Assembly: GCF_013122565.1 (NCBI RefSeq)
Contig: NZ_CP053258.1
Direction: 5' to 3' (one strand)
Origin: Escherichia coli
GTDB lineage: Bacteria > Pseudomonadota > Gammaproteobacteria > Enterobacterales > Enterobacteriaceae
DNA: 64,000 bases
Below are positions 31,896-43,452 of this stretch, piece after piece. Position numbers and translations under genes: made by a program. The notes under the pieces were generated by a model. It was not told the origin of the DNA. It did not search any database and saw only the letters and a program-made list of their open reading frames with translations. Within the stretch, counting starts at the first letter, position 1; the number at the start of each line of letters is the position of its first letter.

Positions 31896-32240
31896 TATTG
31901 CTCTCCTGTGGGCTTAAAAAGGAAATTATAGACTACGTGAGAAACAGCACGAGGATAAGCAGGATATTCCGAATAAAATCCGGCAGAAAATATTACTTCT
32001 GCACTTAAATTAAATTTCCACAATAGATAACCGGGAATATATATCTCAAGAGATATTGCATCAATATCAATCAACTCACCACAATAATAATACCTATCAA
32101 TATCATGGGGTTAAAATATAAAAATCATCAACCAGGACTAATCTTAACAACGAAGCGGCAAATATTTGCCATGCTGAATGTGCTTTATAAATCTGCGATC
32201 CGTAGCAGACACCATAAATACACAGACACGGAGAATCACT

Positions 32241-32456
32241 ATGTTTACTTATTATCAGGCAGAAAATTCAACAGCAGAACCCGCTCTGGTTAATGCCATT
32301 GAGCAAGGCCTTCGGGCAGAGCACGGTGTTGTCACTGAAGATGACATTCTCATGGAGCTGACCAAATGGGTGGAAGCTTCTGATAACGACATCCTCAGTG
32401 ATATCTACCAGCAAACGATCAATTATGTGGTCAGTGGCCAGCACCCTACGCTTTAA
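32241..32456 (+). CDS. bdm: Biofilm-dependent modulation protein Bdm, 71 aa
   Basis: ATG at 32241 (track ORF extended upstream); MFTYYQAENSTAEPALVNAIEQ... Confidence 0.88.
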   Translation: MFTYYQAENSTAEPALVNAIEQGLRAEHGVVTEDDILMELTKWVEASDNDILSDIYQQTINYVVSGQHPTL

Positions 32457-34681: not shown

Positions 34682-35692
34682 ATGAAGGCTGCAGTTGTTA
34701 CGAAGGATCATCATGTTGACGTTACGGATAAAACACTGCGCTCACTGAAACATGGCGAAGCCCTGCTGAAAATGGAGTGTTGTGGTGTATGTCATACCGA
34801 TCTTCATGTTAAGAATGGCGATTTTGGTGACAAAACCGGCGTAATTCTGGGCCATGAAGGGATTGGTGTGGTGGCAGAAGTGGGTCCAGGTGTCACCTCA
34901 TTAAAACCAGGCGATCGTGCCAGCGTGGCGTGGTTTTACGAAGGATGCGGTCATTGCGAATACTGTAACAGTGGTAACGAAACGCTCTGCCGTTCAGTTA
35001 AAAATGCCGGATACAGCGTTGATGGCGGGATGGCGGAAGAGTGCATAGTGGTCGCCGATTACGCGGTAAAAGTGCCAGATGGCCTGGACTCGGCGGCGGC
35101 CAGCAGCATTACCTGTGCGGGGGTCACCACCTACAAAGCCGTTAAGCTGTCAAAAATTCGTCCAGGGCAGTGGATTGCTATCTACGGTCTTGGCGGTCTG
35201 GGTAACCTCGCCCTGCAATACGCGAAGAATGTCTTTAACGCCAAAGTGATCGCCATTGATGTCAATGATGAGCAGTTAAAACTGGCAACCGAAATGGGCG
35301 CTGATTTAGCGATTAACTCACGCACTGAAGACGCCGCCAAAATTGTGCAGGAGAAAACCGGTGGCGCTCACGCTGCGGTGGTAACAGCAGTAGCTAAAGC
35401 TGCGTTTAACTCGGCAGTTGATGCTGTCCGTGCAGGTGGGCGTGTTGTGGCAGTCGGTCTGCCGCCGGAGTCTATGAGCCTGGATATCCCACGCCTTGTG
35501 CTGGATGGCATTGAAGTGGTCGGTTCTCTGGTCGGCACGCGCCAGGATCTAACCGAAGCCTTCCAGTTTGCCGCCGAAGGCAAAGTGGTGCCGAAAGTCG
35601 CCCTGCGTCCGTTAGCGGACATCAACACCATCTTTACCGAGATGGAAGAAGGCAAAATCCGTGGCCGTATGGTGATTGATTTCCGCCGCTAA
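34682..35692 (+). CDS. adhP: Zn-dependent alcohol dehydrogenase AdhP, 336 aa
   Basis: aaggagg RBS; ATG at 34682; Zn-ligand motifs GHEGIGVV and CGHCEYC. Confidence 0.96.
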
Positions 35693-35837
35693 GAGGCCTT
35701 TGCTGCGACTGCCATGTTCGGGTCGCAGCATCGCACACTCTCCAACATGAAATGGCTAAATGGATTATTGTTGCGTAGGAAGGAACAATAATGATAGTGT
35801 TCCCAGAGAAGGAACGCTACTGAGAGTAAAGACACTA

Positions 35838-36122
35838 ATGAAAATGGCCAATCATCCCCGCCCGGGGGACATTATTCAGGAATCACTGGACGAACTTAAT
35901 GTCAGCCTGCGCGAGTTTGCCAGAGCAATGGAAATTGCTCCCTCAACGGCAAGCCGATTGCTGACAGGAAAAGCAGCTTTGACGCCAGAAATGGCAATTA
36001 AACTTTCCGTGGTGATCGGCAGTTCGCCGCAAATGTGGCTGAATCTGCAAAACGCCTGGAGTCTGGCAGAGGCTGAAAAAACGGTGGATGTGTCGCGATT
36101 ACGCCGTCTGGTTACGCAATAA
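35838..36122 (+). CDS. yddM: HigA-like XRE-family HTH protein (putative antitoxin), about 94 aa
   Basis: HTH region [34 protein letters not shown]; start could be 35838 or an upstream in-frame ATG (track ORF begins 35760). Confidence 0.75.
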
Positions 36123-36175
36123 AAAAATGGAACTTTATAAAGCGCCATTTAGAACTGATGACAAACGCAACATTG

Positions 36176-36275
36176 CCTGATGCGCTACGCTTATCAGGCC
36201 TACATGTTCACTGCAATCTATTGTATTTGAAGGGTTTGTAGGCCGGATAAGGCGTTCACGCCGCATCCGGCATGA
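36176..36275. repeat. REP (repetitive extragenic palindromic) elements
   Basis: gcctgatgcgctacgcttatcaggcctac and gccggataaggcgttcacgccgcatccggca, canonical E. coli REP units. Confidence 0.85.
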
Positions 36276-36350
36276 ACAAAGCCTACGTTGTCTACAATAT
36301 GAAAATGACGCCTTTTACAGCGCCATTTTCAGCTTAAAGTTCAAAAGAGA

Positions 36351-37004
36351 TTATATCCCTTCTTCACTCTCTTTTTTCGCTTCTGCCTTCTCGATTTCAC
36401 GATACCAGCGCGGATGGTGTTTCTTCGCCCAGCGACGGCTCACCTTCCCTTCGATCATCCCTTTAATCGATCCTTTCACCCAGAATGCCATATACATATG
36501 GATCAGGATGGCGTGGATCAGGATGATACCCGCAGCCGCGTGGATCAGCAGGCTGTAGCGAACAACTTGCATCGGGAAGTACTGCGCAAAGTACGGACGC
36601 CAGATAATTACCCCGGTCACCAGCAGCACAAAAATCATACTCATGATTGACCAGAACATCATCTTTTGCCCGGCGTTGTACTTACCAACATCCGCCACTT
36701 TATGCTCATTGCCTTTCAATACTTCGACAATGTTCAACAGCCACGGAATATCTTTCTTATCCGGGATGTTGTGATGCACAAAACGCACAAACATAAACAT
36801 CAGCGCGACGAAAATCGCAATGCCGAAGAACGGGTGCAAAATGCGTCCCATCTGCGGCGTACCGAAGGTTTGCGTCAGCCATTGCAGCGTCGGGAAGAAG
36901 AACGAAATCCCGGACAGCGCCACCAGGAAGAAGCAAATCACCACGGTCCAGTGACAGGCGCGATCAATAAATTTGGTGCGCACAATCATTTTCGACTTAC
37001 TCAT
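36351..37004 (-). CDS. fdnI: Formate dehydrogenase-N gamma subunit (cytochrome b556), 217 aa
   Basis: Start at internal Met ([19 protein letters not shown]...); four transmembrane helices with His ligands; start overlaps the fdnH 3' end by 8 nt. Confidence 0.93.
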
Positions 37005-37893: not shown

Positions 37894-40800
37894 TTACGCC
37901 TTCTCGATGTTGACTAAGAACGCTTTATATTCCGGCGTTTGCGAGTTTGCATCACCGACATTCGGCGTCAGAGTGTTAGCGATATAACCTTTACGCGCGA
38001 CACCCTCAAAGCCCCAGTGGATCGGAATACCCACCGTTTCAACCTGCTGACCATTTACATTCAGCGGTTTCAGACGGCGCGTTACCACCGCCACCGCGCG
38101 GATAAAGCCACGCTTGCTTGAGACAGTGACACGATCGCCATTATTAATGCCTTTCGCCGCCGCCAGCGTTTCGCTGATTTCCACAAACTGTTCCGGCTGA
38201 GCAATTGCGTTGAGCAACGCGTGCTTGGTCCAGGTGTGGAAGTGCTCGGTCAGACGATAGGTCGTACCCACATACGGGAACTGCTCTTTTTTACCCATCC
38301 GCAGCGCGTCTTGTTCATACAGACGAACGACCGGGTTAGACACCACGTTCGGATGCAGCGGGTTAGTGCCCAGCGGCGTTTCAATCGGCTCGTAGTGTTC
38401 CGGGAACGGACCTTCCGCCATTTTGTTGATGGCAAACAGGCGTCCCATCCCTTCCGGCTGCATGATAAACGGCCCGGTTGGCGTACCCGGTGCGGCATTG
38501 CCGAAGTCCGGAATATCGTTACCCGTCCACTTGCTGCCGTTCCACTGGATCAGCATCCGTTTCGGATCCCACGGTTTACCGTTGATATCCGCCGAAGCAC
38601 GGTTGTAGAGTACGCGACGGTTGAGCGGCCACGCCCAGGCCCATCCCAGCGTATTCCCCAGACCGGACGGGTCGGAGTTATCGCGGTTAGCCATCTGGTT
38701 GCCCTGCTCTGTCCAGCTACCGGTGTAGATCCAGCAAGAAGATGCGGTTGTACCGTCATCACGCAGATGCGCAAAGCTACTCAGCAACTGACCTTTCTTC
38801 GCAATCAGCACGCCATTTGCGTCATAGAGATCTTCCAGCGCATAGCCGTTGTTCTCTTTTGCCACTTCGTCAGATTGCGGTTCGTGCGGCTGCTTGTAGT
38901 TCCAGCTCATCTTCATCAGCGGTTCTACGCCTTTACCACCTTCGGCCTGGTACAGCTCGCGCAGATGATGGTAGATACCCGCCAGAATTTCGCCGTCGTT
39001 ACGCGCTTCGCCCGGCGCGTCCTGACCTTTCCAGTGCCACTGCAACCAGCGACCGGAGTTAGCGATAGAACCATCTTCTTCGGCAAAGCAGGTCGAAGGC
39101 AGACGGAATACTTCAGTCTGAATAGACGCCGGATCGACATCGTTCGACTCGCCGTGGTTCTGCCAGAAGGTAGAGGTTTCAGTCACCAGCGGATCGATAA
39201 CCACCATGTACTTCAGCTTGCTCAGGCAGCTCACCACTTTGTTTTTGTCCGGGAAGGACGCAACCGGGTTAAAGCCCTGGCAGAAATAACCGGTGACTTT
39301 GCCTTCGTCCATCATGTTGAAATACTTGATGACGTCGTAGGTCTGGTCCCACTTCGGCAGCCAGTCATAGCCCCAGTTGTTCTCTTTCTGCGCGGCATCG
39401 CCATAGAAAGATTTCATCAGGCTAACGAAGAACTTCGGATAGTTGCTCCAGTAGTTCACCTGATCAGCCAGCGTCGCTTTCGGCGTGTTCGCTTCCAGAT
39501 ACGACTGCAAATCAACCTGTTTTTCTGACGGCAGCGTCAGATAACCTGGCAGGCTGGTAGAGAGCAGGCCTAAGTCAGTCAGGCCCTGAATGTTGGAGTG
39601 ACCACGCAATGCGTTCACGCCGCCACCGGCCATACCCATGTTACCGAGCAGCAACTGGATCATCGCCATAGTACGGATGTTCTGCGCACCCACGGTGTGC
39701 TGCGTCCAGCCCAGCGCGTACAGGAAGGTGGTTGTGCGATCCGGTGCGCTGGTGGAGGCCAGCACTTCACACACTTTCAGGAAGTCGGCTTTTGGCGTAC
39801 CGCAGATGTTTTCAACGACGTCCGGCGTGTAGCGGGAAACGTGCGCTTTCAGCAGGTTCCACACACAGCGCGGATGAGTCAGTGTTTCATCGCGTTTCGC
39901 ATAGCCGTTTTCATCGAACTGATAGTTCCAGGACGATTTATCGTATTGCCGTTTTTCAGCGTCGTAGCCGCTGAACAGACCGTCTTCGAAAGCAAAATCA
40001 TCACGCACCAGCAGGCTGGCGTTGGTGTAATGCTTAACATATTCGGCGTTGATTTTGTTGTTTTCGATCAGGTAGCGCAAAACGCCAGACAGGAACGTAA
40101 TGTCCGTACCGGAACGAATAGGTGCGTAAATATCCGCCACAGAAGCGGTACGCGTAAAACGGGGATCGACAACGATCAGGGTTGCATCGTTGTTGTTTTT
40201 CGCTTCCATCGCCCAGCGGAAACCGACGGGATGCGCTTCCGCAGCGTTACCGCCCATTACCATTACGACGTTAGCGTTTTTGATATCCACCCAGTGGTTG
40301 GTCATCGCACCGCGACCAAATGTTGGAGCAAGACTTGCTACCGTTGGTCCGTGTCAGACGCGCGCCTGGTTGTCTACCGCCAGCATCCCGAGGGAGCGGG
40401 CAAATTTCTGGGTCAGCATCCCGGTTTCGTTGCTGGCACCGGAGGCACACAGCATACCGGTAGAAAGCCAACGGTTTACCGTTACGCCCTGCTCGTTCTT
40501 TTCAATAAAGTTAGCGTCACGGTCAGCTTTCATCAGCTTCGCAATACGGGTGAATGCTTCTTCCCAGCTAATGCGCTGCCATTTGTCAGAACCTGGCGCA
40601 CGATATTCCGGGTAGCGCAGACGGTTTTCGCTGTTGACGTAATCCAGCAAACCGGCCCCTTTCGGACACAGCGCACCACGGCTTACCGGATGATCCGGGT
40701 CACCTTCAATGTGATAAATCGCTTCTCTGGCGTTTTTCGCGCCATCACCCAGGCTATACATCAATAGCCCGCAACCTACGGAACAGTATGTGCAGGTGTT

Positions 40801-42313: not shown

Positions 42314-43414
42314 ATGAAATTAAAAATAGTTGCGGTGGTTGTAACTGGTTTGTTAGCTGCGAACGTAGCACACGCTGCCGAAGTCTATAACAAGGATGGT
42401 AATAAACTCGACCTTTATGGCAAGGTTACCGCTCTACGTTATTTTACTGATGATAAGCGTGACGATGGTGATAAAACTTATGCCCGTCTCGGCTTTAAAG
42501 GAGAAACGCAAATCAATGATCAAATAGTTGGTTTTGGTCACTGGGAATATGATTTTAAAGGCTATAACGATGAAGCCAACGGCTCGCGCGGCAACAAGAC
42601 CCGTCTGGCCTATGCAGGTTTAAAAATTAGTGATTTTGGCTCTCTGGACTATGGTCGTAACTACGGTGTCGGCTATGACATTGGTTCATGGACCGATATG
42701 TTGCCAGAATTTGGTGGCGATACCTGGAGTCAGAAAGATGTCTTCATGACATACCGTACCACCGGTGTAGCAACCTATCGCAACTACGATTTCTTTGGCT
42801 TAATTGAAGGGCTGAACTTTGCCGCGCAATATCAAGGCAAAAATGAACGTACTGACAACAGTCATCTTTATGGTGCTGACTACACGCGCGCCAACGGTGA
42901 CGGTTTCGGTATCTCCTCAACTTATGTTTATGATGGCTTTGGTATCGGTGCGGTATATACCAAATCTGATCGGACAAATGCGCAGGAAAGAGCCGCTGCT
43001 AATCCTCTCAATGCCTCCGGTAAGAATGCAGAACTGTGGGCTACAGGTATAAAATATGGTGCCAACAACATCTACTTTGCAGCTAATTACGCTGAAACAT
43101 TAAACATGACCACCTATGGCGATGGTTATATCTCGAACAAAGCACAAAGTTTTGAAGTGGTGGCGCAATATCAATTCGACTTCGGCTTGCGCCCATCACT
43201 CGCTTACCTGAAATCGAAAGGCAGAGATCTGGGCCGCTACGGCGACCAGGACATGATTGAGTATATCGACGTTGGTGCGACGTATTTCTTCAACAAAAAT
43301 ATGTCGACCTATGTTGATTATAAAATCAACCTGATTGATGAAAGCGATTTTACCCGTGCCGTAGATATTCGCACCGATAACATCGTCGCTACGGGCATTA
43401 CCTATCAGTTCTAA
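42314..43414 (+). CDS. Intact OmpC/OmpD-family general porin, 366 aa (yddL position)
   Basis: Signal peptide ...[20 protein letters not shown]; porin hallmarks (PEFGGDT, C-terminal ...TYQF); adjacent to yddG as Salmonella ompD is. Confidence 0.88.
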
Positions 43415-43427
43415 CATCCTCTCCTGA

Positions 43428-43452
43428 CCAGCCCTTCTCTGGGCTGGTTTTT
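43428..43452 (+). terminator. Rho-independent terminator after the porin gene
   Basis: ccagccc / ttctct / gggctgg followed by ttttt. Confidence 0.8.

Follow-up and report, generated by a model that had tools for sequence, protein, structure and literature searches.

REP elements at three intergenic sites of an Escherichia coli chromosome segment: BIME-1 copies in different states of preservation and a possible footprint of their insertion

REP and BIME repeats were recognised about 40 years ago. Three classes of REP are distinguished by length, z1 (29 nt), y (35 nt), and z2 (37 nt) (PMC8266576). BIME-1 combines z1 and y with a long L linker, which often carries an IHF site, and BIME-2 combines z2 and y with a short linker; the GTAG tetranucleotide has been reported to be necessary for TnpA-REP binding (PMC3333891 for both). 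In transcripts, REP stem-loops resist 3'-to-5' exonucleases and define steady-state 3' ends, including those of Rho-terminated transcripts (PMC6061677; PMC12306157). REPINs, mobilised by RAYT/TnpA-REP (a Y1 HUH transposase; yafM in K-12), consist of an inverted REP pair that forms a long hairpin, as do the pairs described here. Atypical BIMEs, which are chimeric combinations of y, z1, and z2 with short or long linkers (PMC3333891), share z1, y, and a short linker with one of our sites (site 2), but they are described as multicopy arrays, whereas site 2 is a single pair. According to PMC3184786, REPs lack the signatures of MITEs, and the abstract of PMC8266576 still calls the spread of REPs and BIMEs poorly understood.

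The window analysed here, a stretch of 64,000 nucleotides of an E. coli chromosome, corresponds in reverse orientation to about 1.52 to 1.56 Mb of K-12 MG1655. REPs occur at three sites in it, all lying between the stop codons of convergent genes, yddM/fdnI (site 1), yddE/nhoA (site 2), and ansP/yncE (site 3), and the gene assignments of the initial annotation (yddM; yddE and nhoA; ansP) proved correct. The neighbouring genes are as follows.

yddM, stop 36120-36122, + strand, left of site 1
fdnI, stop 36351-36353, - strand, right of site 1
yddE, 54690-55583, stop codon 55581-55583, + strand, left of site 2
nhoA, 55679-56524, stop codon 55679-55681, - strand, right of site 2
ansP, stop 63525-63527, + strand, left of site 3; yncE, - strand, lies on its right

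REP units in the window

We searched the window with a REP pattern consisting of the head GCCKGATGCG, a gap of 3 to 20 nt, and the tail CTTATCMGGYCTAC. This consensus scan, the check that the initial annotation had named, matched five units, and no unit was found in 200 dinucleotide-preserving shuffles.

36175-36203, pattern on + strand: REP unit, site 1
36238-36271, pattern on - strand: REP unit, site 1
55591-55619, pattern on + strand: REP unit, site 2
55632-55665, pattern on - strand: REP unit, site 2
63582-63613, pattern on + strand: REP unit, site 3

The 14-nt tail motif alone gave 5 matches against 0.55 expected. A REP pattern with a fixed 11-nt centre had no match in the window because the centres of the units are 5, 8, and 10 nt long. 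Profiles built only from other genomes, which served as an independent test of identity, recovered the same five units with E values from 7e-14 to 1.7e-8; apart from one REP remnant at about 47871-47915, they found nothing else significant in the window. There is no z2 unit in the window, and no BIME-2, which is a tandem array of z2 and y REPs joined by a short S linker; the z2 profile gave only weak cross-matches to the z1 units.

All five units fold better than their own shuffles (z from -3.7 to -5.4; -11 to -22 kcal/mol), each into a stem that an internal mismatch separates from an upper stem, and GATAAG...GCATC is present in all of them. The GTAG tetranucleotide, which in REPs is conserved 5' of the palindrome's foot, is kept in four of the five, the y unit of site 2 having GTAT instead; GTAG together with the AA/GC bulge, both of which are needed for TnpA-REP binding, is likewise found in 4/5 units. 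Covariation among 45 distinct y REPs was limited to 3 compensatory cells, and as the copies are too alike, this signal is too weak to speak for selection on the fold. Queries containing the repeats had medians of at least 39 and of 23 matching places per E. coli genome, and every unit is extragenic, lying between stop codons. No REP feature is listed in the K-12 RefSeq record, and an Rfam scan of the whole window at gathering thresholds returned the fdnG SECIS element only, with no curated RNA family at the REP sites.

The three sites are very probably genuine copies of the known REP/BIME-1 (RIB or RIP) repeat family that differ in their preservation. Elements of this kind are known already, and in substance the initial interpretation holds: the REP sequences lie within 1 to 3 nt of where they had been placed. 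Two of its words need refinement. "Palindromes" describes site 3, which has a single y unit, whereas sites 1 and 2 are inverted pairs of z1 and y; "canonical" suits site 1, where both units are identical to the commonest variants of the family, but not sites 2 and 3, whose sequences are altered.

Published work on the REP family suggests what these sites may do. Each would be transcribed within the 3' UTRs of its neighbouring genes; there, the GC-rich stem-loops would halt exonucleases that degrade from 3' to 5', and mRNA 3' ends would be fixed and protected as a result. The position of these GC-rich stem-loops, where convergent genes end, would also suit ordinary Rho-independent terminators of those genes that are not dispersed repeats. 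However, no T-run follows any REP, a terminator scan found none at sites 1 or 3, and repeats with the same or almost the same sequence as the REPs occur in several genera at loci unrelated to these. Moreover, separate terminator-like hairpins adjoin the REPs at sites 1 and 3 (36302-36331 and 63533-63561); these come closer to terminators, although they fail the T-run rule of the scan. We regard terminators as an extremely unlikely explanation of the REPs themselves.

Four plus-strand open reading frames cross the repeats.

36158-36241, + strand: ORF of 27 aa, crossing site 1
55596-55853, + strand: ORF of 85 aa, crossing site 2, with its ATG inside GCCTGATGCG
63424-63675, + strand: ORF of 83 aa, crossing site 3
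63536-63880, + strand: ORF of 114 aa, crossing site 3

Those at sites 2 and 3 are open for 83 to 114 codons and have start codons, as real small genes would. No repeat-crossing ORF has a Pfam match above threshold, however, and these longer ORFs run antisense through the conserved coding sequences of nhoA and yncE. The K-12 annotation has no gene in any of the three intervals, nor does that of strain PT62 have one between ansP and yncE, the sole interval of the three covered by the PT62 stretch. The parts of the ORFs that the REPs encode are shared repeat sequence, and on another BIME-1, the corresponding ORF is annotated by PGAP as a frameshifted fragment. The chance that these are genes is, in our judgement, negligible. 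The initial annotation had attributed the spurious ORFs to the REPs, which explains them in part: frames without stops come from the REPs, as does the start codon at site 2, but the ORFs at site 3 start upstream of the REP, and the longer ORFs are mostly antisense read-through into nhoA or yncE. Preventing false gene calls in these intervals is the main practical benefit of recognising the REPs.

The full-length BIME-1 of site 1 and its relation to C0362

To define the BIME-1 family, we collected loci in which a z-type tail is followed after 28 to 40 nt by a y-type tail. With one genome per species, this gave 120 loci from E. albertii, E. whittamii, E. coli, Pseudocitrobacter, Citrobacter, Kosakonia, and others. 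REPs in about 1 Mb of these loci fall into length classes of 29, 34, and 36 nt, counted without the flanking A, which correspond to z1, y, and z2. Pairs of z1 and y about 35 nt apart dominate in these loci, which had been preselected for a 28- to 40-nt spacer, and z2-y pairs are spaced by 14 to 17 nt.

When the flanks of 103 BIME-1 copies from other genomes were aligned, conservation extended about 25 nt to the left and about 31 nt to the right and dropped sharply beyond. The family consensus is 154 nt long and reads TGAGACTGATGACAAACGCAAAATT, then z1, L, and y, then ATGAACAAAGCGCACTTTGTCAGCAATCTGA; the consensus of the L linker is AAGGTTTCTGCAATATATTGAATTTGCACGATTTT. The outer 16 nt of the 154-nt consensus, read by eye, are imperfect inverted repeats with 13/16 matches. 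The standard descriptions of BIME-1 that were consulted comprise z1-L-y only (about 98 nt), whereas the conserved unit found here is about 152 to 154 nt long, with additional arms of 24 to 25 and 30 to 31 nt. It may be these arms that Gilson et al. 1991 named motifs "A" and "B".

At site 1, the BIME-1 is complete. It measures about 152 nt (36151-36301), is made up of left arm, z1, a 34-nt L, y, and right arm, and is wider than 36176-36275, the extent given in the initial annotation. It matches the 154-nt profile over 36154-36301 (positions 5 to 153; 144.5 bits; E = 4e-44) and is bracketed by two similar 27-nt palindromes, 36124-36150 and 36302-36328.

36124-36150, unstranded: left hairpin copy AAAATGGAACTTTATAAAGCGCCATTT, a direct repeat of 36302-36328, directly 3' of the yddM stop; preceded by an A-tract; decayed, -6.5 kcal/mol
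36151-36174, + strand: left arm AGAACTGATGACAAACGCAACATT, conserved in the 103 other-genome copies; profile positions 5 to 25
36175-36203, - strand (GTAG-first orientation): z1 REP, 29 nt, equal to the commonest z1 variant; E = 1.5e-11; -13.2 kcal/mol, z = -4.6
36204-36237, + strand: L linker, 34 nt, 25/35 matches to the family consensus
36214-36226, - strand: segment ATACAATAGATTG resembling the IHF consensus, 2 mismatches to WATCAANNNNTTR
36238-36272, + strand: y REP, 35 nt, GTAGGCCGGATAAGGCGTTCACGCCGCATCCGGCA, equal to the commonest variant; E = 7e-14; -21.3 kcal/mol, z = -4.9
36273-36301, + strand: right arm TGAACAAAGCCTACGTTGTCTACAATATG, from flank conservation and profile alignment
36302-36331, unstranded: right hairpin copy and T-run; on the minus strand a 13-bp stem of -18.1 kcal/mol just downstream of the fdnI stop

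Site 1 has the composition and order that define BIME-1, with a homologous L, and stands in one copy at the 3' ends of transcription units. Its y REP fits the y numbering of PMC8266576 (T11, A12A13/G26C27, G32). With 25 matches to the L consensus, the linker is inside the range of the family (median, 28) and above the shuffle average (mean, 19.5; maximum, 26). By homology, the linker may bind IHF. Its IHF-like segment has 2 mismatches, against 1 in the family consensus; as 39% of shuffled linkers also reach 2 or fewer, consensus scoring does not separate L from shuffles.

Because the hairpin on the yddM side is weak (-6.5 kcal/mol), yddM transcripts would probably run into the element; the strong copy faces fdnI.

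The number of units at this site varies. In K-12, the whole 178-nt unit, that is, the element and one hairpin copy, occurs twice in tandem with the junction inside the hairpin repeat, and this two-unit junction is present at 99% identity or more in 1,240 of 5,426 complete E. coli genomes. We took a census with a query made of the coding flanks only in 60 E. coli genomes sampled evenly down the ranking. An intergenic region of about 50 nt without a unit was found in 23/60 (about 38%), one of 228 nt with one unit, as in the window, in another 23/60, and one of 406 nt with two units in 10/60. The remaining 4/60 gave split matches to which units were not assigned, and in one of these four, an IS200/IS605-family tnpA lies in the A-tract beside the site-1 hairpin.

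The K-12 stretch orthologous to site 1 carries C0362, one of three sRNAs in EcoCyc known to contain REPs, with function unknown (PMC12306157). C0362 was cloned as an RNA of about 386 nt, and its overexpression gave bands of about 200 and 230 nt and no phenotype (PMC4606813). By blastn, the C0362 insert from the supplement of PMC4606813 maps to 1552001-1552386 of NC_000913.3 on the fdnI strand and, in the window, to 36341-36117 on the minus strand. On this alignment, site 1 is the single-copy orthologue of the C0362 stretch of K-12, and C0362 is the two-cassette version: K-12 has two tandem cassettes of about 386 nt, the window has one, with an equivalent of about 208 nt, and many strains have none.

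Site 1 might accordingly be read as a bona fide trans-acting sRNA of which the REPs are incidental parts, given that its K-12 orthologue is catalogued as an sRNA on the fdnI strand and that discrete bands appear upon overexpression. Against this, the C0362 stretch consists entirely of hairpin and BIME-1 cassette sequence, E. coli genomes carry 0, 1, or 2 copies of it, a scan of 36050-36400 gave no promoter-like site, Rfam has no family for the stretch, and overexpression of this RNA of unknown listed function had no phenotype. A simpler account of the signal is that C0362 would be a REP-protected 3' fragment of fdnGHI mRNA, and we consider a trans-acting sRNA very unlikely.

Hairpin copies at the ends of BIME-1

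The paired hairpins of site 1 have a counterpart in the empty allele of this site in E. coli, which has one perfect hairpin (AAAAATGGCGCTT-CTTA-AAGCGCCATTTT) preceded by an A-tract and followed by a T-run. Among 101 to 102 BIME-1 loci, a direct repeat between left and right flanks exceeded the 99th percentile of cross-locus controls in 36 to 37, which after removal of orthologues left 28 to 29 distinct loci. The left copy usually ends 24 nt before z1 (16/29) and the right copy starts 30 nt after y (18/29); both modal positions fall exactly at the ends of the element. The duplicated repeats are 17 to 31 nt long, locus specific, and nearly all stable hairpins, and nine pairs are identical. A strong hairpin is present at one end at least in about 60% of BIME-1 copies, compared with 4 to 23% of control windows. 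Since the sequence is A-rich before the left copy at 21/28 loci and T-rich after the right copy at 18/28, the targets look like bidirectional intrinsic terminators.

Empty and occupied alleles were compared at two further loci. Between agp and yccJ, E. whittamii has a hairpin-element-hairpin arrangement with a perfect 25-nt duplication, and E. coli K-12 has a single hairpin. Between uvrB and yvcK, E. coli E69 has hairpin-element-hairpin and isolate AF39 a single hairpin; in K-12 the element is present and the left hairpin copy has been lost. All three comparisons (site 1, agp-yccJ, and uvrB-yvcK) agree with a duplication of the hairpin.

Two other origins of the flanking copies were considered and rejected. 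Inverted (fold-back) repeats do not fit asymmetric loops that have the same orientation in both copies, and for 28 loci that share one 24/30-nt geometry, tandem duplication followed by precise deletion would be too contrived an explanation.

The simplest reading of these alignments is that the target hairpin is duplicated as a whole in connection with insertion. BIME-1 would have been inserted beside a terminator-like hairpin between convergent genes, with a copy of the hairpin coming to lie on either side; the left copy would keep the A-tract and the right copy the T-tract, and the element would therefore be transcribed from both directions upstream of a terminator. Unequal exchange between hairpin copies could later have changed the number of units to 0, 1, 2, or more, which would account for the alleles of site 1 and the arrays of E. 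albertii, and erosion could have led to sites 2 and 3. In its full form, the proposal is that BIME-1 is a MITE-like element of about 154 nt with 16-nt imperfect terminal inverted repeats, which is inserted next to a bidirectional terminator-like hairpin and duplicates it in full (17 to 31 nt), and that this is previously undescribed. We put this full form forward tentatively, as a possibility that is more doubtful than probable.

The IS200/IS605 family, to which the REP-associated transposase is related, is described as making no larger target duplications (PMC2817692). No hairpin-sized duplication is known for Y1 transposases of this type, whereas BIME-1 is bracketed by hairpin duplications of 17 to 31 nt. 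The 64 kb of the window contain no RAYT gene. Presence/absence polymorphism would be consistent with mobility but does not point to a particular enzyme. The hairpin duplication is not described in the literature consulted and may be new; an earlier description may exist. If it is true, a target duplication of hairpin length would be a concrete trace of the way in which REP/BIME elements spread, and the hairpin-element-hairpin arrangements with single-hairpin empty alleles at three loci make this insertion footprint defined and testable.

Incomplete copies at sites 2 and 3

At site 2 (55591-55666), z1 and y are separated by 12 nt; most of L is missing and there are no arms. The 154-nt profile matches the core only (55586-55668; 70.6 bits; E = 2e-21).

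55591-55619, - strand: z1 REP, 29 nt, tail CAGGTCTAC, which carries a G-to-T change; E = 5e-10; -11.1 kcal/mol, z = -4.0
55620-55631, + strand: linker AACCGAGCTAAT, 12 nt, aligning to the profile as L with a 23-nt internal deletion
55632-55666, + strand: y REP, 35 nt, with GTAT for GTAG (GTATGCC); E = 6e-12; -22.2 kcal/mol, z = -5.4

A tail-to-tail linker of 12 nt fits neither BIME-1, with its L of about 35 nt, nor BIME-2, and the alignment suggests a BIME-1 with a 23-nt deletion inside L. Site 2 is covered by 5,149 of 5,425 E. coli genomes, and its intergenic length is 95 nt in 37 of 40 that were sampled. K-12 also has it, with a more decayed z1.

The stem-loops of site 2 start 7 nt past the yddE stop and 13 nt past the nhoA stop. 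According to Liang et al. 2015, as cited in PMC12306157, terminating ribosomes stall and the upstream gene is translated less when a REP and a stop codon are less than 16 nt apart. Both stems are in this range of up to 15 nt, which makes yddE and nhoA candidates for REP-dependent translational down-regulation by analogy with the published effect. One REP pair serving two convergent genes does not appear in the account of that effect given in PMC12306157.

Site 3 (63563-63619) lies beside a hairpin and retains a y REP together with the proximal portion of the right arm. By nhmmer, it matches the 154-nt profile on the minus strand from 63619 to 63563 (positions 84 to 141; 40.2 bits; E = 5e-12).

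63533-63561, unstranded: GC-rich hairpin AAATTGCCCGGCTACGTGCCGGGCAAATT, 5 nt past the ansP stop, followed on the minus strand by AAUUUUG; identical in K-12
63562-63580, - strand: right-arm remnant, TGAAGTAAAGAGCACCTTC on the minus strand; nhmmer, profile positions 124 to 141
63581-63613, - strand: y REP, GTAGGCCGGATAAGGCGCTTGCCGCATCCGGCA on the minus strand; E = 1.7e-8; -19.3 kcal/mol, z = -3.7

The hairpin at 63533-63561 sits where the boundary hairpin of the element would be, and with the y REP and arm remnant abutting it, site 3 fits the hairpin-element layout. The unit is 32 to 33 nt long and lacks 2 nt of the upper stem that are present in the 34-nt y REP of strains G1/2 and PT62. Alleles were told apart by identity bands, the intergenic length (110 to 114 nt in all) being uninformative. 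At 95% identity or more, the allele of the window is found in 68 of 5,411 E. coli genomes (about 1%), and 5,291 fall into the 80 to 90% band. Site 1 is missing from about 38% of the sampled E. coli, and an intact site 3 from about 99%, so that neither of these sites can be essential.

Such presence/absence polymorphism at sites 1 and 3, together with the loss of GTAG at site 2, the decay of its z1 copy in K-12, and the truncation of site 3, could mean that a selfish repeat has left inert, decaying remnants here that do nothing to the flanking genes at present. The near-constant length and wide coverage of site 2 argue against this. A stable stem-loop in a transcribed 3' untranslated region is also expected to affect decay (PMC6061677), and the stop-codon distances of site 2 are inside the range that matters according to the citation of Liang et al. 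2015. We judge inertness to be rather unlikely.

K-12 is without site 3. Its coding ends and the hairpin corresponding to 63533-63561 are nearly identical to those of the window, and about 68 nt between them differ. Within this stretch, K-12 keeps a 17-nt remnant, TGCCGGATACGCCGTGA, which matches the head of y at 15/17 positions and folds no better than chance.

Duplicated hairpins around BIME-1 and the fdnI-yddM region

When comparing BIME-1 elements (a z1 REP, an L linker, and a y REP, plus flanking arms) between loci, we noticed a terminator-like hairpin of 17 to 31 nt, specific to each locus, in directly repeated copies on both sides of the element. Such hairpin-bracketed BIME-1 elements were found at 28 to 29 distinct loci, including the comparison loci L100, L085, L108, L073, L039, and L042. 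About 24 nt separate the end of the left copy from z1, and about 30 nt lie between y and the start of the right copy. "Empty" alleles with one hairpin were found at fdnI-yddM, agp-yccJ, and uvrB-yvcK.

Features of the fdnI-yddM (site 1) and uvrB-yvcK intergenic regions
Window 36124-36150: left hairpin copy at site 1
Window 36302-36328: right hairpin copy at site 1
Window 36117-36341, minus strand: C0362 stretch, one-cassette version
L001 (K-12) 32002-32387: C0362 stretch, two cassettes
L125 (E. coli WR14-2) 2651-3412: yddM-fdnI intergenic, carrying an IS200/IS605-family element with a tnpA coding sequence of 459 nt
L128 (K-12 derivative) 175-272: BIME-1-borne pseudo-CDS, uvrB-yvcK intergenic

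C0362, a K-12 candidate sRNA of about 386 nt with unknown function, is simply the sequence between fdnI and yddM, in which two cassettes stand in tandem, each consisting of the hairpin and a BIME-1. In E. albertii, we also observed such cassettes in tandem arrays. The BIME-1 starts in one locus (L025, reverse-complemented; 9819, 9996, and 10351) fit a period of about 177 nt with up to four units, three of which were detected, and the other locus (L005 6973-7478) carries four BIME-1 copies at a spacing of about 147 nt. The unit-wise amplification in these arrays is the same as that behind the K-12 two-copy state at fdnI-yddM.

Some strains have an IS200/IS605-family element at the "empty" site 1, inserted into the A-tract immediately upstream of its one hairpin, which makes this position a target for another element associated with hairpins.

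The ansP-yncE alleles, a further REP remnant, and a spurious ORF

At site 3, from the hairpin on the ansP side to the stop codon of yncE, the window has about 68 nt (63562-63629; compared with L001 4370-4481), in place of which K-12 has unrelated sequence of near-equal length. This K-12-type replacement sequence is carried by about 98% of E. coli genomes, and its sole traces of the element are a REP head of 17 nt and, as judged by eye, the right arm's distal part. The alleles look as if one old insertion had eroded in two different ways.

A degenerate REP remnant, missing from the initial annotation, was observed in the narU-narZ intergenic region (window 47871-47915). It consists of ACCTGACACGTCTTATCAGGCTAC, a z-type head and tail without the upper stem, followed by GTCGCATCCGACA. 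The remnant partially matches the z2 profile (E value of 0.0016), and 13 nt of it are absent in K-12.

REP palindromes had also been said to account for spurious ORFs, and one live example is the pseudo-CDS at uvrB-yvcK, called "hypothetical protein, frameshifted; incomplete" by NCBI's pipeline, which lies entirely on a BIME-1.

The rest of the window

Two stretches of the window have no alignment to K-12: 42597-45097, corresponding to the yddJ/yddK/yddL region, and 57302-61146, corresponding to the rhsE-ydcD-yncI-ydcC-pptA region. In the second region, the closest strain, PT62, has a GNAT acetyltransferase gene and six hypothetical genes where K-12 has an Rhs remnant. A 201-nt piece at site 2 (yddE/nhoA) is 100% identical to PT62. 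When 5,426 complete E. coli genomes were compared, the top identity was only 98.5% for window 35600-36900 and only 97.5% for 58000-64000. The window appears to come from a lineage without close representation among these genomes, or to be a mosaic.

Across the window, Rfam gave no match other than SECIS_3 in fdnG (40301-40359, minus strand; 84 bits), which is the selenocysteine insertion signal expected for formate dehydrogenase-N.
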